Position numbers and translations under genes: made by a program. Shown here piece after piece: positions 1 through 10,178 of a stretch of 11,888 bases of DNA (the stretch's first letter is position 1; the number at the start of each line of letters is the position of its first letter). Source of the stretch: a virus (taxonomy: Duplodnaviria; Heunggongvirae; Uroviricota; Caudoviricetes); IMG/VR virus record IMGVR_UViG_2896601577_000007; one strand, written 5' to 3'. The notes beneath the pieces are model-generated. The model was not told the DNA's origin. It searched no databases and saw only the letters and a list, made by a program, of their open reading frames with translations.

Positions 1-519
1 TCATCGGTTCGTCTGAGAATGACGTGCAACTGCGCACGCGACACCCGGAGACAACGGCTGACTAAGCTTACTCCCCATCCCGGGCAATAAGGGCGCGTGC
101 GCTATCCACTTTTTTGCCCGTCCATATTCAACGGCTTCTTTGAGGAGTTCATTTTCCATCGTTTTCTTGCCGAGCAGGCGCTGGAGTTCTTTAATCTGCT
201 TCATGGCGGCAGCAAGTTCAGAGGCAGGAACAACCTGTTCTCCGGCGGCCACAGCAGTAAGACTTCCTTCCTGGTATTGCTTACGCCAGAGAAATAACTG
301 GCTGCTACACCATGTTGCCGGGCAACGAGGGAGACCGTCATCCCCGGTTCAAAGCTCTGCTGAACAATTGCGATCTTTTCCTGTGTGGTACGCCGTCTGC
401 GTTTCTCCGGCCCTAAGACATCAATCATCTGTACTCCAATGACTAGTCTAAAAACTAGTATTAAGACTATCACTTATTTAAGTGATACTGGTTGTCTGGA
501 GATTCAGGGGGCCAGTCTA
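1..519 (-). mobile_element. IS2 (IS3 family), partial copy: left end with terminal inverted repeat and insC/start of insD; the remainder lies beyond the window's left edge
   Basis: Reverse complement of 421..519 matches the IS2 left terminus as I recall it (TAGACTGGCCCCCTGAATCTCCAGACAACC...), ending at 519. Minus-strand ORFs carry InsC sequence ([44 protein letters not shown] and [57 protein letters not shown]) and an InsD segment ([27 protein letters not shown]). A6G slippery motif is present on the minus strand near 108..116. Confidence 0.9.
68..428 (-). pseudogene. insC: IS2 orfA (insC) remnant, reading frame broken
   Basis: The N-terminal 44 aa of InsC sit in the frame of ORF 201..473 and the remaining InsC sequence in the frame of ORF 1..252; the two frames switch near 297..300. 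ATG at 428. Confidence 0.7.
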
Positions 520-736
520 CATCCCACCATTTCAGGGCAATCAGCGCCTCAGCACGGGAAAGGGATATTCTCTGTATATCAGCATCCTCCCCACCAGCCA
601 CCCGGTATACCTCTGATAAATCACGAACATTTTTCATGTCTGCTTTCCCGGACGTTTCCATCAGTGCGTTAATATCATCCCCGTATAGCGTGATTGCGCG
701 ACGATACCAGCCAGAGAGATAACCATAGCCCGGCAT
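520..736 (-). CDS. 3' portion of the FtsH-like peptidase-domain gene, cut off by the IS2 end
   Basis: 72 codons of open frame run directly into the IS2 terminus at 519/520; the last 16 aa of the track ORF 470..736 are encoded by IS2 sequence. This frame is open upstream to 763 and overlaps the 661..1020 ORF. Confidence 0.45.
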
Positions 737-1020
737 ACCTGGTCTATCAGACGTAACCTGGTGTCATCATTCGAGAGGGTGTAAGACTTAACCTCAGCCA
801 CATTCCGTGGATAGTTGGCGTGCCATACCGCGACAGCTCCACATTCATCAACATCGCCGCTAAGGTAGGTTTTTGCCACTCGGTTATTACCCGATAACGC
901 AATTTCTACCTCCTGTATGCCGAAAAACCATGCGGCTATCGCATGACCTGCTTCATGTATTGCAAGATGTCTGGGCCAGCGATAGCTGCCGAACTCAATA
1001 ATGATGGGTTGCGTACTCAT
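661..1020 (-). CDS. Zn-metallopeptidase-like protein, FtsH/M41-type domain (HEAGH motif), possibly frameshifted
   Basis: LAIHEAGHAIAAWFFG followed by SLAGIVAQSRYTG resembles the FtsH protease-domain pattern (HEaGHA ... GGRaAE ... TG..DI). Internal ATG at 1020 is preceded by GAGGGA; the track ORF extends to 1098 without a Shine-Dalgarno sequence. Confidence 0.6.
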   Translation of the reverse strand: MSTQPIIIEFGSYRWPRHLAIHEAGHAIAAWFFGIQEVEIALSGNNRVAKTYLSGDVDECGAVAVWHANYPRNVAEVKSYTLSNDDTRLRLIDQVCRAMVISLAGIVAQSRYTGMILTH

Positions 1021-1030
1021 ATCTTCCCTC

Positions 1031-1465
1031 TCAGAATGGCGTTTCATTGTCGAATGGTGGGCGTTGGTCGTATTCATCACGGGATGGCTGCTGCGCACGT
1101 CTCAGCGCGTCCGTTGCCTGTCCCCGCTGTCCTGCCTTCCCGCCGGGGCGTACCGTTCTGGCGCTGATCACACTGTCGGCTACTACCTGATACCCCTGCT
1201 GTGTACCGCCGTCCTGCCCTGTCCACTGGTTGAGTTGCATATTGCCTGCCACGCTCACAAGGTCGCCTTTCTGGTGCTTTGCCAGCGCATCGGCCTGCTT
1301 CCCAAAAGCAATAACGCCCAGCCAGAAGGTTGACTCTCCCGCCTCTGCCGCATTACAGGGGAGAGACACCGCCAGCCGCGCCATAGCCATGTTGTTACCG
1401 TTCGTTGTGGTGCGGGTCTGGGGATCTGCCACCAGCCGCCCGTATGCTGAAATTTGTGCTGTCAT
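1031..1465 (-). CDS. ssb: Single-stranded DNA-binding protein-like (OB fold, acidic PF tail)
   Basis: 144 aa; OB-fold-like pattern (RLVADPQTR...NG...ARLAVSL...FWLGVIAFGKQADALAKHQKGDLVSVAGNMQLNQWTGQDGG..YQVVAD) and C-terminal ...PPFDNETPF similar to the SSB DDDIPF tail. GAGGGG Shine-Dalgarno sequence upstream of ATG at 1465. Confidence 0.65.
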   Translation of the reverse strand: MTAQISAYGRLVADPQTRTTTNGNNMAMARLAVSLPCNAAEAGESTFWLGVIAFGKQADALAKHQKGDLVSVAGNMQLNQWTGQDGGTQQGYQVVADSVISARTVRPGGKAGQRGQATDALRRAQQPSRDEYDQRPPFDNETPF

Positions 1466-1553
1466 TTTCCCCTCACTGGATTATTAGTTTTGCTAATGAC
1501 GATTTCTTAATGTGGGACACCTGCCGATTTTTTTTCATAGTAAGCAAAAATAG

Positions 1554-1813
1554 TGTTGTCTCTGTTGTCTTTGTTGTCTCACGGCTCTACAGGCCGCGCC
1601 ACGTCTGGGTTTTGCTGAGACAACATTTGCAATTTCGTGTTGTCTCACCCGGCATAAATGTTGTCTCACTGCCTGCCAGACTAAAAACACACTTTCGCCC
1701 TGTTGTCTCAAAATGGCTAAATGTTGTCTCGGTGTTGTCTCAGAAATTAAAATAAAATCCTTATAAATCAATCTCAATTACAAATTGAGACAACAAAGAC
1801 AACCGAGACAACA
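1554..1813. repeat. Iteron array: at least 8 direct and 3 inverted copies of TGTTGTCTC around an AT-rich core; putative origin of replication
   Basis: Direct copies at 1554, 1563 (TGTTGTCTT), 1572, 1639, 1659, 1701, 1722, 1733; inverted GAGACAACA at 1617, 1787, 1805; AT-rich stretch 1742..1790. It lies immediately 3' of the primase gene. Confidence 0.8.
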
Positions 1814-1839
1814 CTAAAACTACGCATGTGAAGAAATAA

Positions 1840-2289
1840 TTATTCTTCTGGCTGGCTGCTTTCCTCTGCCATGAAATTGAGTACATAGACGCGAATCTGT
1901 CGCCCATCCTCCCTTACTCGCCCCTGATAGCCTCGCCCGCTCGTTGGTGGTGTAAGCATTCCTGCATTCTTTAGAACTTCGGCAAACTGTTTGGTATTGA
2001 AGCCCTTTGCAATCTCCTGCTCAAACGCTGCCGGGAAGGTGTAGAAAATTATCGGGTCGCCGTCGTGGTTCCCCTTCTTCCTGTACCCGGCTAAATCACG
2101 GATGGGTAAATCGCGCGGGTCATAACCCAGCGGCGCGAATCGACTCAGCCCATAGGCATTCAAAAACGCCTCCGTCTGCTCAATAATCTGCTGGTGCTCT
2201 TTGTTCCCCGTGCCGAACTCACGCAACCACGCATTGTAGCTGTGCTGTATCGCATCACGGCACGTTTGATCATCCCAGCCAGTAACCAC
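1840..2289 (-). CDS. Primase/helicase C-terminal fragment (third frame segment)
   Basis: GTG-initiated track ORF with no convincing Shine-Dalgarno sequence; its frame is open upstream to about 2394, overlapping the end of the 2334..3890 ORF. Confidence 0.55.
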   Translation of the reverse strand: MVTGWDDQTCRDAIQHSYNAWLREFGTGNKEHQQIIEQTEAFLNAYGLSRFAPLGYDPRDLPIRDLAGYRKKGNHDGDPIIFYTFPAAFEQEIAKGFNTKQFAEVLKNAGMLTPPTSGRGYQGRVREDGRQIRVYVLNFMAEESSQPEE

Positions 2290-2333
2290 GCCACCCAGCA
2301 GTAAAGCAGCCTCCAGAATGGCGAACCTTGCCC

Positions 2334-3890
2334 CTACACGGTGAACCTGTTCCCATAGTCGGCAGGAATAAGACTGCGCCAGCGGGCTTCACAGTCACGA
2401 ACGGTATCAATGGCCTGCTGCTGGTGGCCTGCAAGCCATCTGATCCACTCCCGCCCGGCAGCGCCGTGATTGCTCTGCCACGCGGATTTTAATGCGTCTG
2501 CATGGTCTTTCCCTGTCTGGTGCTCATGAAAGCGCACCGCCTTACTTAACGGGATATTCAGCAGGCGCACCAGTTGCCCCGCTTTTGTCTTGCGTCCTGC
2601 GGAGGCAATGAACGTTTCTAAATCCATTTCCCCGGTGCTGATTGCCACGGTACGCCAGCGTTTTAGATCCCGATTTCCGCCTTCTTTCGCGCCCTGCAAT
2701 TTCCCTACGCCGTTAAACAGGGCATAGGCAGACTGAGAAACGCTTATCGGGTCTGCGCCCTGTCCGACTTCATCCAGCGGCATCAGTCCGTCATTGTGGG
2801 CGGCGGCCTCGTTTATCATCCCCAGCGCCGTCCCGTACCACGTCAGGCGCAAGGCATCAGGGTTCCCGTATAGACTGCTAGCCACGTTCTGCGTGGTTGT
2901 TTTCCCGGCGCTCGATTGCTCATAAAAATGAATCCCGAATCCGTCACGCTCTGCCACCCCGATTAATGGCGCTGCCAGTGCTGCGGCAATGCCTGTCATC
3001 ATCGCGTAGTTGCCGTATGCCAGCCGCGCGACACTGTTGCGCCAGCTTTCCGGCGTTCCTGCTACGGTATACCCGGCAGCGGCTGAACTGCGCCCGCTGA
3101 ACAAAACAGGCCGCTCAGGTGTGCCGATGATTTCCCCGTCCGGCATGATGTATGCCCCGCACTGCCAGCCTGTAGCATGAGCAACGCGCCACAATTCACG
3201 CGAGCCGCTCCGCTGTAGCCAGTCGGCAAGGATCGCCCGTAAACTGCTTTTGGTCGTGACGTTAACCCCACCAGCTTTCAGGGTGCGCCAGCCTTCACGC
3301 TCGCCAATATCAGCCAGCGGGATAGCCGCTGTTGTCGGTATGCCTGCACCGAATGCCAGCCATGAGATAATAAGATACTGATCTTTGTCGTCGCGTCCCG
3401 TGCCGATAACCTCCAACGGGGAACATAACCAGCTTTCAGCGTTGACGATCTCCCCGCTTTCCTTGTCCACCTTCGGCGTTACCCAGAAAACGCCATCTTT
3501 GCGGCTCTCAATGTGGGGTTTTAGTGGATCTTTCTCTGGATGGTCAGTTTTACCGCCCTCAATGGCTTGCAATCGCGGTTTCACGGCTTCCCCTTGAATC
3601 TGGTACATCGAATCGTTAAACGCAGCCGTAGCGACTTCCAGCCCGTTTTGCTGGCGGTAATCGTCCCAGTCGGCTTTGTAGTCTGTCGGCGGCAGCGCCA
3701 CCCAGCCAGCCACGGATAAGGCGGCTTTCTCTGCGGCATCTTTGCCCGTGTTCGCCTGGTCGTCCTGCTGGTGGTCGTTATCTGCGGCAATGATAATCTG
3801 CGTGGCTGGATATATCCGGCGCATCACTTCGGCAACGGGTAGCAGGTTGCCCGCGTCAATTGCTGCCACTGCCAGCGCGTCCGGGCGCAT
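2334..3890 (-). CDS. Primase/helicase central fragment: distal TOPRIM (DxD) plus P-loop region (DUF927-like)
   Basis: IIIAADNDHQ (TOPRIM DxD) 37 aa after the annotated Met, and a Walker-A-like SSAGKTTT. Its ATG overlaps the stop of the upstream fragment (TGATG). The frame upstream of the Met encodes LATALSVHL, which continues the TOPRIM motif. Confidence 0.85.
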   Translation of the reverse strand: MRPDALAVAAIDAGNLLPVAEVMRRIYPATQIIIAADNDHQQDDQANTGKDAAEKAALSVAGWVALPPTDYKADWDDYRQQNGLEVATAAFNDSMYQIQGEAVKPRLQAIEGGKTDHPEKDPLKPHIESRKDGVFWVTPKVDKESGEIVNAESWLCSPLEVIGTGRDDKDQYLIISWLAFGAGIPTTAAIPLADIGEREGWRTLKAGGVNVTTKSSLRAILADWLQRSGSRELWRVAHATGWQCGAYIMPDGEIIGTPERPVLFSGRSSAAAGYTVAGTPESWRNSVARLAYGNYAMMTGIAAALAAPLIGVAERDGFGIHFYEQSSAGKTTTQNVASSLYGNPDALRLTWYGTALGMINEAAAHNDGLMPLDEVGQGADPISVSQSAYALFNGVGKLQGAKEGGNRDLKRWRTVAISTGEMDLETFIASAGRKTKAGQLVRLLNIPLSKAVRFHEHQTGKDHADALKSAWQSNHGAAGREWIRWLAGHQQQAIDTVRDCEARWRSLIPADYGNRFTV

Positions 3891-4597
3891 CAGGTGAACT
3901 GAAAGGGCCGTCGCCAGCCCTCGGCAATTAAAACGCTCTGCGGCGATTCTGGCGCGTTTACGGCGTGATATGCCCCGCGCTTTGCTGAACCTGTCAGGAG
4001 TCGCTTCTCTCCCTGCGGTGTAATGGTTTGCGCTGCTGCCACTGCGCCGGATTCGTCCACCAGCTCCAGCAATAACGAACCATCCGGCATAACCGGATAG
4101 TTAAACCCGGTCAGCCCTTTTGATTGCAGGTAATCAGATTCGCCCTGTGTGGCACTCTGGCGCATTCCGGCATACAGATGGGCAAACGTAGCCCTTCGCT
4201 GCTCTGCGTCCTCTGCTGCCTGTTTCTGGCGCTCCTGCTCACGCTGCTGGCGGTCAGCTTCCAGTTGCTCTCTTCTATGGCTCGCTGCCGCCGGGTCGGT
4301 TTGCGCTGCCCGGTAATCAATACCCAGCACGTCAGCGGCAAGCTGTGCCGCCTCCGTGGTGTCGCAGTTGTTTACCCGCTTGATTAAATCCAGCCCGTCA
4401 CCAGCGCCACACTGGTTGCAGATAAAGCTACCGCGCCCGTTGTCGTCGAATCTGAAACGGTCTTTTCCACCACATGCAGGGCATGGAGAATGGCGGCGCG
4501 ATGAATCAGGCACGTCGATAGACAATTCAGCCAGCACATAAGGCCAGCGCCCTGCTGCGGCGCTGGTCACTTCGCGGATAAGGTCGATATTACGCAT
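3890..4597 (-). CDS. Primase N-terminal fragment: Zn-ribbon plus start of TOPRIM (catalytic Glu)
   Basis: CPACGGKDRFRFDDNGRGSFICNQCGAGDGLDLI is a P4 alpha-type primase zinc-binding motif; the fragment ends ...SVLIAEG then WRRPFQFT*. ATG at 4597 is preceded by AGGAGG; the track ORF extends to 4630. Confidence 0.85.
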   Translation of the reverse strand: MRNIDLIREVTSAAAGRWPYVLAELSIDVPDSSRRHSPCPACGGKDRFRFDDNGRGSFICNQCGAGDGLDLIKRVNNCDTTEAAQLAADVLGIDYRAAQTDPAAASHRREQLEADRQQREQERQKQAAEDAEQRRATFAHLYAGMRQSATQGESDYLQSKGLTGFNYPVMPDGSLLLELVDESGAVAAAQTITPQGEKRLLTGSAKRGAYHAVNAPESPQSVLIAEGWRRPFQFT

Positions 4598-4666
4598 GGT
4601 TGCCTCCTGCCACGGTCGCGCCCATATCATTAATCATGCTTTGCCATATCTCGCGCCCGATGTCAG

Positions 4667-4930
4667 TCAATCCGTCCTTAGTGACGCAACGATCAAGAAG
4701 CTCGATCCCACGATTTCCCACTGCGGGTAGCGCACTTTCATGGCTGCCAGTGCGTAGCTATCAATCAGGCTGCGAACGCCTTTTACTCCATTGACGATTT
4801 CCACACGGACGGCGAGGCCGTCCGCATCAATCATGAAATAGTCCCCGCCGCTGGTGGAAGTAATGTGGTTATACAGTGCTGCCGCATACTTATTCGCCAG
4901 CGCATTCAGTCGGAAATTTTTAGTAATCAT
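4667..4930 (-). CDS. Hypothetical protein (87 aa), last gene before the primase
   Basis: ORF with GAGGGG Shine-Dalgarno sequence 4 nt upstream of ATG 4930; 8-nt gap after the upstream gene's stop. Confidence 0.6.
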   Translation of the reverse strand: MITKNFRLNALANKYAAALYNHITSTSGGDYFMIDADGLAVRVEIVNGVKGVRSLIDSYALAAMKVRYPQWEIVGSSFLIVASLRTD

Positions 4931-4938
4931 GTCGCCCC

Positions 4939-5541
4939 TCAGTGCGCCAGCGCCATTTCAGGCCAGCCGTTTTCATTCAGTTCAGCTATAAAGCTGTTGT
5001 GAAGTTCAGCAAGCGTTTCACGACCAAATGGAGTCAGTGCTCCTTGTTCCACATCCATCATGGCTCTGTAGAAAATGATGGCGCGTTCTGTGCCAGACTC
5101 GATGCCAAAACGTTCTATCATCGCGCCCTCAATGTTGTTTGCCATAGCGAGGCGCTCTGCTACTGGATACAGCGGCATGGCGACGATGCCGTTGGAATAA
5201 ACAGCCACTTCGGAAGGATTGCCAGTATCATCAATGATGCTGACAGTGCCGTTTTCCTCTCTCATTTCCAGCATGAATACTGTTGCGATCAGCCAGCGCC
5301 ACATAATCACGTGATGCTGTGATGTGTAATCGAAATATCCCTGGTTGCCGCCACTGGCAATAGCGAGATGTATAAACATGCCTTCATCTGGTTTATCGTC
5401 ATAATCCCCGGCATCCAGACGATTTACGGCATCAATATATGAGACGGTCTCAACGCGTTCTGTCATGCCATCGTTGCTGCGGTACATGATGTTTACGCCG
5501 CCAGGCGTTGCTTCTGCATGGAACGTTAAGAAATTATTCAT
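4939..5541 (-). CDS. Hypothetical protein (200 aa)
   Basis: Internal ATG at 5541 preceded by GAGG, overlapping the upstream gene's stop by 8 nt; the track ORF extends to 5646 with no Shine-Dalgarno sequence. Confidence 0.65.
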   Translation of the reverse strand: MNNFLTFHAEATPGGVNIMYRSNDGMTERVETVSYIDAVNRLDAGDYDDKPDEGMFIHLAIASGGNQGYFDYTSQHHVIMWRWLIATVFMLEMREENGTVSIIDDTGNPSEVAVYSNGIVAMPLYPVAERLAMANNIEGAMIERFGIESGTERAIIFYRAMMDVEQGALTPFGRETLAELHNSFIAELNENGWPEMALAH

Positions 5542-5755
5542 GTTTCGCCTCGCCTGAATGATTCTGTAACTCATATTTGCCCAACAATTCGTCAGCTTCC
5601 TGAATAGCTTCTGGTACGCCATTGAGCAGTGACATAACCGCGCCAATCATTAACTTGTCTCTGTTGCTGGGGCTGGCCCCTTCAAGCCAGAACCCTAAAA
5701 CAGTCTGAACCTGTTCGATGCGACATTGCGCTTCAATGAGCTGGATGTTGGTCAT
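5534..5755 (-). CDS. Hypothetical small protein (73 aa)
   Basis: ATGA start/stop overlap with the upstream gene; GGAG 8 nt upstream. Confidence 0.6.
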   Translation of the reverse strand: MTNIQLIEAQCRIEQVQTVLGFWLEGASPSNRDKLMIGAVMSLLNGVPEAIQEADELLGKYELQNHSGEAKHE

Positions 5756-6015
5756 TTCGCACTCTCCACATCGATTAAACTGATATCTATCAGGGAGGTA
5801 ACTTTTTGTAGCCAGCTATTGATTACTGTCGCCTGTTCCCCTCCCACCGAGGGAACAATCTCATTCATCACATGAACCAGACCTGTGCGCGCTCTGGTAA
5901 GCCGTTCAGTCGCGCAATCTGCGGGAGTGAATGTGTCTGGATATGGCTCTTCGCGCCCCAGCAATGATTCAATTTCCAGCTCACACGGATGACGATAAAT
6001 TAAGTTGATATTCAT
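5752..6015 (-). CDS. Hypothetical small protein (87 aa)
   Basis: ATGA overlap with the upstream gene; GGGGGTG Shine-Dalgarno sequence upstream of ATG 6015. Confidence 0.6.
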   Translation of the reverse strand: MNINLIYRHPCELEIESLLGREEPYPDTFTPADCATERLTRARTGLVHVMNEIVPSVGGEQATVINSWLQKVTSLIDISLIDVESAK

Positions 6016-6206
6016 TTTTCACCCCCAAGAATTACCAGCTCTGCACGGGCATCGTTAACCAAAGATGAGCACGCTTTAATCGCATCCACGACATCAGCAG
6101 CGTCCATTTCTTCAGCCGAAAGACTGACAGCAACCAGGACAGCCGCTGTTTGCTCGATTAATTGAAGTGCGGACGTAAGGCGAGGGGTATTAATTGAGTT
6201 ATTCAT
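6012..6206 (-). CDS. Hypothetical small protein (64 aa)
   Basis: ATG at 6206 preceded by a G-rich Shine-Dalgarno-like run, 8-nt overlap with the upstream gene's stop; the track ORF extends to 6263. Confidence 0.55.
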   Translation of the reverse strand: MNNSINTPRLTSALQLIEQTAAVLVAVSLSAEEMDAADVVDAIKACSSLVNDARAELVILGGEK

Positions 6207-6417
6207 TGGTTGCCCCCCGTTTTCCTGACATTTCGCCACCTTCCAGCAGGAAATGAACGTCACGAACGGCGAGATCCAATATCGCGAGTAACGCCTTCAG
6301 TTTTTCGTCTCGTGAGGGAGAGTTGCTCACCAGAATGTCATTAATCACTTCTGTCAGTGTGATGATCTGGCTTGTGCGTTCGAGGGGATCCATATGCACA
6401 TCGTAGGTTTTAATCAT
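6199..6417 (-). CDS. Hypothetical small protein (72 aa)
   Basis: ATG at 6417 preceded by GGAGGTG; overlaps the stop of the first operon gene by 8 nt; the track ORF extends to 6507. Confidence 0.6.
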   Translation of the reverse strand: MIKTYDVHMDPLERTSQIITLTEVINDILVSNSPSRDEKLKALLAILDLAVRDVHFLLEGGEMSGKRGATNE

Positions 6418-6604
6418 GTGCCACCTCCATGCGGATACGACCAGCAAAAAAGCAGACGTGATCGCGCACCAGAGAACGGCGAGCATCGCGTTCAGACTCG
6501 GCAGCAATATGATGAATTTTGGCGGTAATTGTCGGGCAATCGCGGCGAACTGCGGCGATAATCCAGATAAATTGCGGTTTTTGGGTAGGGGTAGTAGCCA
6601 GCAT
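6410..6604 (-). CDS. Hypothetical small protein (64 aa), first gene of the small-gene operon
   Basis: ATG at 6604 with AAGGAGG (rc of 6613..6619) 8 nt upstream (MLATTPTQKPQFIWIIAAVRRD...). This is the 3' end of the track ORF 6410..7165, which I do not accept as a single CDS. Confidence 0.6.
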   Translation of the reverse strand: MLATTPTQKPQFIWIIAAVRRDCPTITAKIHHIAAESERDARRSLVRDHVCFFAGRIRMEVAHD

Positions 6605-6631
6605 AGCGGCAGCCTCCTTTGTGTTTAAGGA

Positions 6632-6670
6632 GTCACCGCCTGAGTTTCCACGCTCTGAAATGGCGGTGAC
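6632..6670 (-). promoter_or_regulatory. 9-bp-stem hairpin in the 5' leader, just upstream of the Shine-Dalgarno sequence of the first operon gene
   Basis: GTCACCGCC (6632..6640) and GGCGGTGAC (6662..6670) are perfect inverted repeats around a 21-nt loop; a 5-bp stem with UUCG loop on the minus-strand RNA lies at 6711..6724. Confidence 0.35.
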
Positions 6671-6793
6671 GTTAGCAGGGGTGGAAATACCGGACACAAA
6701 GGAAACCGGCCTACGCGAACGTAGCCCCACTAACGCCACCATTGATACAGTACGGACTAGGCCGCTGATTTGATGTGCGTAGTGATCGGACAC

Positions 6794-6816
6794 AAAAAAA
6801 GACGCTTTCGGCGTCT
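6794..6816 (-). terminator. Intrinsic-terminator-like hairpin followed by a U-run (minus strand)
   Basis: Minus-strand RNA reads AGACGC-CGAAA-GCGUCU followed by UUUUUU (plus-strand A-run 6794..6799). Confidence 0.5.
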
Positions 6817-7103
6817 GTGTCGCCCTGAGTGTGTTCGGGTTTCCACGCCCGGTTGCTGATTTTGCAGCAACGCTTGGACTATAACAGCTTTTCTCTGCTA
6901 GGTGGTCATACCAGATAAAACCGTAACCCTTTAAGAGTTTTTCCTGTGCACGGCTCACCATCTTTTTGTTGAGGGTAAGCGCCTCGCGTACTGGTAACGG
7001 AACTCCGGGCGCTGCGGTATCAATATCAGGTTTTATAAGGTTGTAAGGGTTAACATTTGTTAACAGGCCAGCCAGATTAAAGGCTTCTTTCTGGGCGGCA
7101 GGT

Positions 7104-7286
7104 TCATTCAGTATCACGGCGCACCTCCACGAACTCATTAACGAATCTCTCCAAAGGCTGAACACATGGCGACTGATAGCCCTCGCGGTAAAAGGTCACT
7201 CGGTTATGCTCGACGCGCTCAACGGTCACTACAGCCCCGTGCGAATCCTTGTAACGGCTTCCCGGCATCGGATTGTGGTTACGCAT
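7104..7286 (-). CDS. Hypothetical small protein (60 aa)
   Basis: GGAGG 5 nt upstream of ATG 7286; overlaps the stop of the upstream 50-aa ORF by 8 nt. Confidence 0.55.
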   Translation of the reverse strand: MRNHNPMPGSRYKDSHGAVVTVERVEHNRVTFYREGYQSPCVQPLERFVNEFVEVRRDTE

Positions 7287-7431
7287 GGTTTACCTCCAGA
7301 CGTTTAGCGAGCCAGCGTTGCGACAGGCGGGTGAGTTCTCCTTTGCGCTGCTCATATTCCATGCCCATATCAATTAACGTGATATTGGTGCTTTCGAGAT
7401 AGGCGAGGTGTTCAAGCTGTGCTGCGTTCAT
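7279..7431 (-). CDS. Hypothetical small protein (50 aa), below the ORF-track length cutoff
   Basis: Hand translation of the minus strand: MNAAQLEHLAYLESTNITLIDMGMEYEQRKGELTRLSQRWLAKRLEVNHA; its stop overlaps the 7104..7286 start region. Confidence 0.4.
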   Translation of the reverse strand: MNAAQLEHLAYLESTNITLIDMGMEYEQRKGELTRLSQRWLAKRLEVNHA

Positions 7432-7470
7432 GCTGTCCCGTGGTTCGCCAGTAATGCCATTTGCCTGCGC

Positions 7471-8088
7471 TCACTGCTTCGCCGTCATGCCACCCAGCAC
7501 GATACGGGCGATCATGTTGCTCTCGTTGCTGTAGTGGCGCTGCTGCGTCGTTTTGCCCATCTCGGCACGGGCCATATTCAGCGCATCGCACATTGGCTTA
7601 AAGTTGTTTGCGGCACTGAGACGGGCTTTTAGCTGGCGACGATAGCGGGCGGCGATTTCAGGCACGCTACGCTGTAATTCTTCCTCGCACTGGATGAAAT
7701 AACGGCGGATAGCGCGGCCCTGCTCGTTGCGTTCAACCATTGCCACTTCTTTAGCCATATCCAGCGATAGCAGGTAATCATGCTCTATTTGCTGGCGAGT
7801 TTTTGCGCTCGCCCGTTTTGGCGTGCTCAAATTTTCAACACGGATAAAATCGGTTCCGGCAATAAAACCGTACTGGTCAATTCGGCCTTTAATCCAGTTA
7901 GTAAAGTCGCGGCCCACCCCCAGCGCTTTATGCAACGCCTTAGCGCTCACAATATTGGCTTCACGCCCGCCAATGCGTCCGGCAATAACGGGAACAATAG
8001 CGGCAAAGTCGTTGCCGTTAATTACTCCCGTGTTAACGTTGGGTTGCGGGGCGGCCCCCGAACTGAATCGGCTTTTTTCGATAGTCAT
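7471..8088 (-). CDS. Phage antirepressor-like protein (AntA-type N-terminal domain)
   Basis: VSAKALHKALGVGRDFTNWIKGRIDQYGFIAGTDFI resembles the AntA/antirepressor motif. ATG 8088 is preceded by GGAG; the track ORF extends to 8148 and would overlap the upstream gene. Confidence 0.7.
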   Translation of the reverse strand: MTIEKSRFSSGAAPQPNVNTGVINGNDFAAIVPVIAGRIGGREANIVSAKALHKALGVGRDFTNWIKGRIDQYGFIAGTDFIRVENLSTPKRASAKTRQQIEHDYLLSLDMAKEVAMVERNEQGRAIRRYFIQCEEELQRSVPEIAARYRRQLKARLSAANNFKPMCDALNMARAEMGKTTQQRHYSNESNMIARIVLGGMTAKQ

Positions 8089-9234: not shown

Positions 9235-9401
9235 CTACGGATATTTCGTGGAAGGCATGTTTTGTATAATCGAGAAAAAATAATAATTCGCACTTACGTC
9301 TAGTTCTCTTTTTCTGTGTGCGGGGCTGAATATGCGTGCGGGAGTGTCAATAGAATCAAGCCCTGCGATGTCGAGTATATAGGAGGCGTTAACATGCCAT
9401 A
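9235..9401 (-). pseudogene. 3' part of the integrase-proximal cargo gene interrupted by IS1
   Basis: Same reading frame as 10179..10473 once IS1 and one target-site duplication copy (777 nt) are removed; the reconstructed ORF is 153 aa. Confidence 0.6.
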
Positions 9402-9410
9402 GCCCAAGCA
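9402..9410. repeat. IS1 target-site duplication, left copy (GCCCAAGCA)
   Basis: Identical 9-mer directly flanks both IS1 ends. Confidence 0.85.
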
Positions 9411-9465
9411 GGTAATGCTGCCAACTTACTGATTTAGTGTATGATGGTGATTTTAAGGTGCTTGC

Positions 9466-9741
9466 GTGGCTTCCATTTCCATCAGATGTCCTTCCTGCTC
9501 CGCTACTGAAGGCGTGGTGCGTAACGGCAAAAGCACTGCCGGACATCAGCGCTATCTCTGCTCTCATTGCCGTAAAACATGGCAACTACAGTTCACTTAC
9601 ACCGCCTCTCAGCCCGGTACGCACCAGAAAATCATTGATATGGCCATGAATGGCGTCGGATGTCGCGCCAGTGCACGCATTATGGGCGTTGGCCTCAACA
9701 CGGTTTTACGTCACTTAAAAAACTCAGGCCGCAGTCGGTAA
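9466..9741 (+). CDS. insA: IS1 InsA (91 aa, GTG start)
   Basis: [66 protein letters not shown]... closely matches IS1 InsA. Confidence 0.9.
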
Positions 9742-10163
9742 CCTCGCGCATACAACCGGGCAGTGATGTGATTGTCTGCGCTGAAATGGACGAACAGTGG
9801 GGCTACGTCGGTGCTAAATCACGTCAGCGCTGGCTGTTTTACGCGTATGACAGGATACGGAGGAGGGTTGTGGCGCACGTCTTCGGTGAACGCACTCTGG
9901 CCACACTGGAGCGTCTTCTGAGCCTGCTGTCGGCCTTTGAGGTCGTGGTATGGATGACGGATGGCTGGCCGCTGTATGAATCACGCCTGAAGGGAAAGCT
10001 GCACGTTATCAGCAAGCGTTACACTCAGCGCATTGAGCGACATAATCTGAATCTGAGACAACATCTGGCAAGGCTGGGACGGAAGTCACTGTCGTTCTCA
10101 AAATCGGTGGAGCTGCATGACAAGGTCATCGGGCATTATCTGAACATAAAACACTATCAGTAA
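9660..10163 (+). CDS. insB: IS1 InsB (167 aa), transposase catalytic part
   Basis: ...[58 protein letters not shown]...[13 protein letters not shown] matches IS1 InsB with several substitutions. Confidence 0.9.
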
Positions 10164-10178
10164 GTTGGAGTCATTACC

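Follow-up and report, generated by a model that had tools for sequence, protein, structure and literature searches.

Why should a single replication gene be read in three different frames? The question is raised by a stretch of 11,888 nucleotides, hereafter the window, which is IMG/VR record IMGVR_UViG_2896601577_000007 and is an exact part of the 4,607,924-bp chromosome CP026867.1 (L010; GCA_002949895.1). On its minus strand, positions 4597..1840 contain one gene, for a predicted primase-helicase, that appears as three consecutive open reading frames (ORFs) in three frames, and the element to which the gene belongs is an integrase-bearing chromosomal island adjoining yicC in Shigella boydii. 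The comparisons reported here make it very probable that the two breaks are uncorrected homopolymer consensus errors in the long-read assembly CP026867.1 and that the gene is one normal primase-helicase.

A primase-helicase gene with two bases missing from the record

The three minus-strand ORFs lie at 3890..4630, 2334..3890, and 1840..2289, and the start of the first that is homologous to the start in relatives is the ATG at 4597 (MRNIDL). At the first junction, fragment 1 ends ...SVLIAEGWRRPFQFT followed by a stop, and the adjacent frame reads ...GLATALSVHLMRPDALAVAAIDAGNLLPV...IIIAADNDHQ. At the second junction, ...IPADYGNRFTV and a stop stand beside ...EQVHRVGARFAILEAALLLGGVVTGWDDQ...; both sets of junction translations, as written in the original prediction, were confirmed from the sequence. 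In a four-way alignment with three intact 2760-nucleotide (nt) homologues from Escherichia coli, two internal 1-nt gaps were found, and only in the window gene. Each gap was a contraction of GGGG to GGG on the coding strand, seen on the plus strand as CCC at 3918-3920 and 2352-2354, and the alignment thereby bore out the earlier proposal that one base is missing from each of these two C runs. When one base was added per site, the repaired translation was an uninterrupted ORF of 919 codons, which agrees with the single gene of about 920 amino acids (aa) that had been predicted. Homology was collinear and ran across both junctions, and thus the split is not a chance pattern. We conclude that the three ORFs are parts of one gene from which two bases are missing in the record.

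Homologues were found to be continuous ORFs of 918-923 aa in E. coli, S. boydii, Klebsiella, Enterobacter, Citrobacter, and Atlantibacter, in short-read, draft, or Sanger assemblies or in other species. Megablast against complete E. coli genomes matched 131 records, 50 of them covering at least 80% of the query, and for the full-length matches listed the annotation showed one gene, named either "TOPRIM and DUF927 domain-containing protein" or "DUF927 domain-containing protein"; in the records inspected it measured 2760 nt. The DNA of these E. coli genes was 92-97.6% identical to the window gene; no copy closer than 97.6% was present in the E. coli genome collection, which excludes Shigella. 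The original prediction had named two outcomes that would count against it, namely, homologues organized as separate genes and alignments that fail to span the proposed junctions. No homologue was organized in that way, and both junctions were spanned. A native organization as separate primase and helicase genes was rejected, as the homologues are single genes.

The breaks are private to one record

Draft contig QXHH01000160.1 (L016; 9 kb) was found by means of the window's own SSB allele. Over window positions 467-7462 the two sequences differed by no substitution and at four places, and each of the four was the loss of a single G from a G4 or G5 run of the window (next to 4710, 3921, 2355, and 683). 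Four insertions or deletions (indels) without any substitution are unlike natural divergence. The primase ORF of the contig encoded 919 aa, identical to the repaired translation, and the window differed from the S. boydii 919-aa TOPRIM and DUF927 protein gene only by the two missing bases.

Exact-sequence look-ups among about 15 billion proteins gave the same picture for three ORFs. The intact 919-aa primase-helicase was encoded on 29 contigs besides the window's record, under the name of the S. boydii TOPRIM and DUF927 protein, whereas the window forms of 235, 518, and 149 aa were encoded on one contig each. Likewise, the ORF upstream of the primase gene was intact (113 aa) on 205 contigs and had its window form (87 aa) on one, and the ORF downstream of ssb was intact (183 aa) on 40 contigs and had its window forms (119 and 63 aa) on one contig each. 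In every case the single contig that carried a shortened form was the window's own record.

A six-way alignment of the island (11.4 kb) indicated five private one-base homopolymer deletions in the window versus two private substitutions, one at 9865 (inside IS1) and one at 1048. Outside the primase-helicase gene, a probable under-call at 4707-4709 (CCC for CCCC) shortened the 113-aa ORF to 87 aa, and another at 679-682 (CCCC for CCCCC) divided the 183-aa ORF into 119 and 63 aa. The fifth private deletion, T7 to T6 at 9275-9280 (A6 for A7 on the plus strand), lay between ORFs. A pseudogene common to the S. boydii lineage was rejected, as no other assembly in the collection encoded any of the fragments and all sister loci had GGGG at both primase sites, including those of the nearest relatives, which have single-nucleotide polymorphisms in common with the window, CP026866.1 (L007) and QXHH01000160.1. 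In CP026866.1, an apparent in-frame 3-nt deletion (GGC) aligned to window positions 3913-3915, near the first G run, gives a product of 918 aa and may be real or an artefact.

One way in which a gene could be broken in a single record is if both deletions are real. The gene would then have become a pseudogene very recently, as part of the decay of its island, and the stock might be one that is deficient in mismatch repair and gathers homopolymer contractions. Shigella lineages accumulate pseudogenes, and the damage to the island is genuine: IS1 occupies ~9408-10178, IS2 stands at the start of the window, and antA contains a nonsense codon (7471-7473), all of which would suit such decay. The broken alleles, however, occurred in one assembly only, whereas an intact and otherwise identical allele was present on the 29 contigs. 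Moreover, four deletions and no substitutions over the 7 kb shared with QXHH01000160.1 is not what mutation would be expected to leave, since indels are about ten-fold rarer than substitutions in E. coli mutation-accumulation studies. Finally, every one-base event was a deletion and never an insertion. We consider it very improbable that the two deletions are real, and the sister assemblies described below weigh in the same direction.

The same signature occurs in sister assemblies

Further complete or near-complete chromosomes, some with accession numbers adjacent to that of the window's record, also had private one-base homopolymer deletions, at sites of their own. The island of PTES01000002 (L006) contained five private one-base homopolymer deletions and a sixth that was common to CP026866.1. 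Its primase gene was also split, into 212, 576, and 107 aa, and the breaks fell at other G4 runs, 3973-3976 and 2206-2209. A housekeeping flank of 10.8 kb was compared as well. There, CP026872 (L011) had five private deletions that coincided with split or shortened waaA, mutM, and pyrE, and PTES01000002 had three that coincided with split mutM and split coaBC (dfp), the latter an essential gene. The split of an essential gene cannot be real, and therefore such differences are artefacts of those assemblies. The flank of the window's record had one private deletion, C5 to C4 (at ~8210 of the L010 locus, outside the window), and its rph encoded 228 rather than 238 aa. In CP026872, rph likewise encoded 228 aa, and the private deletion there lay at another site. 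The E. coli K-12 rph-1 product also has 228 aa; the short rph in the window's record and in CP026872 probably represents errors. No one-base insertion was found in any assembly in the island and flank alignments, and no private one-base deletion was found in the Sanger sequence CP001063, the draft AMKE01000112, two Logan short-read contigs, or QXHH01000160.1.

A mutational origin fails to explain why the same signature appears elsewhere in sister long-read records, where it includes the split essential coaBC of PTES01000002. A variant of that explanation is that the contractions are real and that the isolate is a mutator stock (for example, one deficient in mismatch repair) with recent homopolymer contractions. 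Were this so, the replication initiator of the island would be inactivated and the island would be fixed in place, but we regard such a stock as hardly likely.

Both breaks lie in short G runs that could in principle slip. Recoding, either as programmed ribosomal frameshifting or as slippage during transcription, might join the three frames; alternatively, the runs might serve as switches for phase variation. Homologues from other assembly types and other species, however, have one continuous ORF, neither break was present in any other record, and the only other split copy, that of PTES01000002, was broken at different G4 runs. In addition, the same contraction occurred in unrelated neighbour genes and in intergenic DNA, and a four-base run is far below the length of known contingency tracts. 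We give next to no weight to recoding or switching at these sites.

Homopolymer indels are the predominant error of long-read sequencing and create false frameshift pseudogenes (PMC12007338). CP026832, of the same accession block as CP026867.1, is described in PMC10132075 as a PacBio sequence that belongs to the 59 strains of Kim et al. (2018), and the shared block suggests that CP026867.1 comes from the same set and platform. The window resembles long-read false frameshift pseudogenes in that the same single-base homopolymer deletions are private to long-read records and break intact genes; it differs in that its runs are short (4-7 bases) and in that its platform is deduced.

Each of the two breaks is thus a single-base homopolymer change, is private to one assembly, and belongs to a class of change that recurs at dispersed sites in this record and in others of its batch, in housekeeping genes as well. 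Consistent with an error at the sequencing or consensus step, which would account for the gaps, two single-base under-calls in GGGG homopolymers of a long-read consensus would give the gene its three-frame appearance. Several points weigh against this explanation. The error is deduced from comparison among records, the PacBio-only origin of CP026867.1 is likewise taken from the accession block, and QXHH01000160.1 may come from a different isolate. A run of four bases is shorter than is typical of classical homopolymer errors, real pseudogenes are numerous in Shigella genomes, and the island is genuinely decaying, as seen from IS1, IS2, and the TGG-to-TGA change in antA. We conclude, with high confidence, that the breaks are uncorrected errors of CP026867.1; the actual DNA most probably has four G's in each run and an unbroken gene.

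The repaired product is a predicted fusion of primase and helicase

The repaired protein was compared with Pfam. A zinc ribbon (PF08273, Zn_Ribbon_Prim) was matched at residues 34-69, with values of 2.9e-16 and 1.3e-15, and includes the cysteine pairs CPAC (39-42) and CNQC (60-63). Residues 222-319 matched positions 2-93 of the 95-position Toprim_3 profile (PF13362) and contain both TOPRIM motifs, the glutamate E226 and the DxD motif at D273-N-D275. DUF927 (PF06048) followed at residues 367-645 (E = 1.5e-48), with a Walker A motif, SSAGKTT, at 562-568 and a Walker B motif, LMPLDEVG, at 605-612. The first break falls inside TOPRIM (codon 226/227), such that E226 and D273-N-D275 lie in different ORFs, as the original prediction had held when it described a TOPRIM domain split across an ORF boundary. 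The second break (codon 749/750) detaches the C-terminal ~170 residues. With the two bases added, the window gene combines a zinc ribbon, TOPRIM, and a DUF927 P-loop NTPase core on a single polypeptide of ~920 aa, the four characters by which the family is recognized. We conclude that the gene belongs to a known and widespread family of island replication proteins, and that its product, as judged by homology, joins a DnaG-type primase, made up of the zinc ribbon and TOPRIM, to a DUF927 helicase.

Relation to known replication systems

The closest likeness is to the enterobacterial TOPRIM and DUF927 proteins WP_016244017.1 and WP_021548885.1, which agree with the window protein in length (919 aa), in the order of their domains, and in island context. 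A distant similarity was found to SaPIbov1 Rep and SCCmec Cch, which are DUF927, MCM-like self-loading initiator helicases (PDB 8tch, 5dgk): over residues 412-816 the DUF927 region matched chain 8tch_A (E = 5.5e-8; "Pathogenicity island protein"), and it also matched 5dgk_A ("Active helicase"; E = 0.002). Cch of SCCmec has been reported to contain DUF927 and to be related to the SaPIbov1 Rep initiator (PMC7581432). The primases of SaPIbov1 and SaPI5 are of the archaeo-eukaryotic type (PMC7581432), whereas the window protein has a DnaG-type primase, with zinc ribbon and TOPRIM, fused N-terminally to its helicase. In SaPIs the origin is an iteron array that immediately follows rep and is bound by the C-terminal domain of Rep (PMC7581432), and the window likewise has an iteron array directly downstream of the primase-helicase gene. 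By analogy, the C-terminal ~170 residues of the window protein are probably the origin-binding domain.

The original prediction had related the gene to P4 alpha and DUF927 primases. The DUF927 helicase was confirmed, but the P4-type alpha match listed covered only residues 8-96. With P4 alpha the protein shares a logic, namely, a zinc-ribbon/TOPRIM primase, a helicase, and presumed origin recognition on one polypeptide in an integrase-bearing island; the helicase type differs, as the module of the window protein is DUF927. Orthology to P4 alpha was rejected on the span of that match ("Alpha: putative P4-specific DNA primase"), a comparison made by way of an annotated phage record. A tblastn search of 50,697 phage records found none that covered 80% of the protein. 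Among the 15 phage matches listed, which were drawn from all parts of the ranking, a Klebsiella phage "hypothetical protein" covered 61% (residues 350-912), and the other 14 covered 7-13%: a Faecalibacterium phage primase/helicase covered 13% (residues 554-676), one covered residues 33-92, and the remaining 12, the P4-type alpha record among them, were confined to residues ~7-97, which surround the zinc ribbon.

The island and a candidate origin

The genes that surround the primase-helicase gene include a tyrosine integrase beside yicC, an AlpA-type regulator, AntA, DUF4222, an Ash/Icd-like protein, and SSB. The integrase has the same sequence as the one in S. boydii CDC 3083-94 and was found on 173 contigs, and therefore many near-identical strains are available for comparison of the island. 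Between the primase-helicase stop and ssb lies a repeat cluster (Table 1) that contains ten exact GAGACAAC 8-mers plus AAGACAAC variants; over the whole window, 21 matches to GAGACAAC with at most one mismatch were found versus 7.5 expected. The cluster is probably an iteron-type replication origin of the island. On the basis of homology and layout, the product would likely act as a self-loading initiator: bound to the iterons that follow its gene, it would open the duplex and supply primers for replication of the excised island. In the draft locus L005, 84 bp of the repeat array (window 1563-1646) was missing.

Parts of the island are damaged. Flanked by the integrase and AlpA-type regulator genes is a hypothetical gene into which the IS1 copy is inserted; E. 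coli relatives have an uninterrupted gene of ~290-310 aa there. The antA gene (antA/AntB family), on the minus strand, stops early at its TGA, where E. coli (L001) has TGG, and the TGA was invariant at this position among the S. boydii relatives aligned; it is therefore a true truncation of the lineage and not an assembly error. Window positions 1 to ~466 are the end of the IS2 copy. Within it, CCC for CCCC at 79-81 is a probable under-call, as judged against the single record CP026872, and orfA is split (75 plus 83 aa versus 121 aa) by an apparent 4-nt contraction of a CAGC repeat near 305 together with the run at 79-81, again relative to CP026872. We conclude that the island is partly degraded and that its replication gene is most probably intact.

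Downstream of ssb, the minus-strand ORF at 661-1098 encodes the motif HEAGHAIAAW (HExxH), and one member of its cluster is named "Peptidase M41 domain-containing protein." The motif and name raise the possibility of a small island gene for a metalloprotease-like protein. In E. coli relatives the equivalent position is occupied by a different gene, of the PerC family.

Table 1. Parts of the primase-helicase gene and adjoining repeats, in window coordinates
Feature	Position	Strand	Evidence
Primase-helicase gene, 919 aa if intact; two bases missing in the record	1840..4597	-	Collinear alignment; repaired translation identical to QXHH01000160.1 product
Fragment 1, 235 aa: zinc ribbon (34-69), first TOPRIM strand to E226, 9 out-of-frame residues, stop	3890..4597	-	Pfam, translation
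Missing base 1, codon 226/227; all relatives have four bases	3918..3920	-	Alignments
Fragment 2: remaining TOPRIM (DxD 273-275) and DUF927 helicase core, Walker A/B	2334..3917	-	Pfam, motif positions
Missing base 2, codon 749/750; all relatives have four bases	2352..2354	-	Alignments
Fragment 3: C-terminal ~170 residues, no Pfam match	1840..2351	-	Translation, Pfam
13 GAGACAAC-type repeats, both orientations, around an AT-rich stretch	1555..1812		Between primase-helicase stop and ssb

Discussion

An intact primase-helicase gene removes the apparent anomaly of the locus and adds none of its own. False frameshifts would occur about once per 2-3 kb in the stretches of the record that were examined. 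Because false frameshifts are present in this record and in sister assemblies, pseudogene counts or claims of gene decay that are drawn from them would be inflated. The pseudogene load of Shigella is itself a research question, and hence the caution is relevant to the biology of these organisms.

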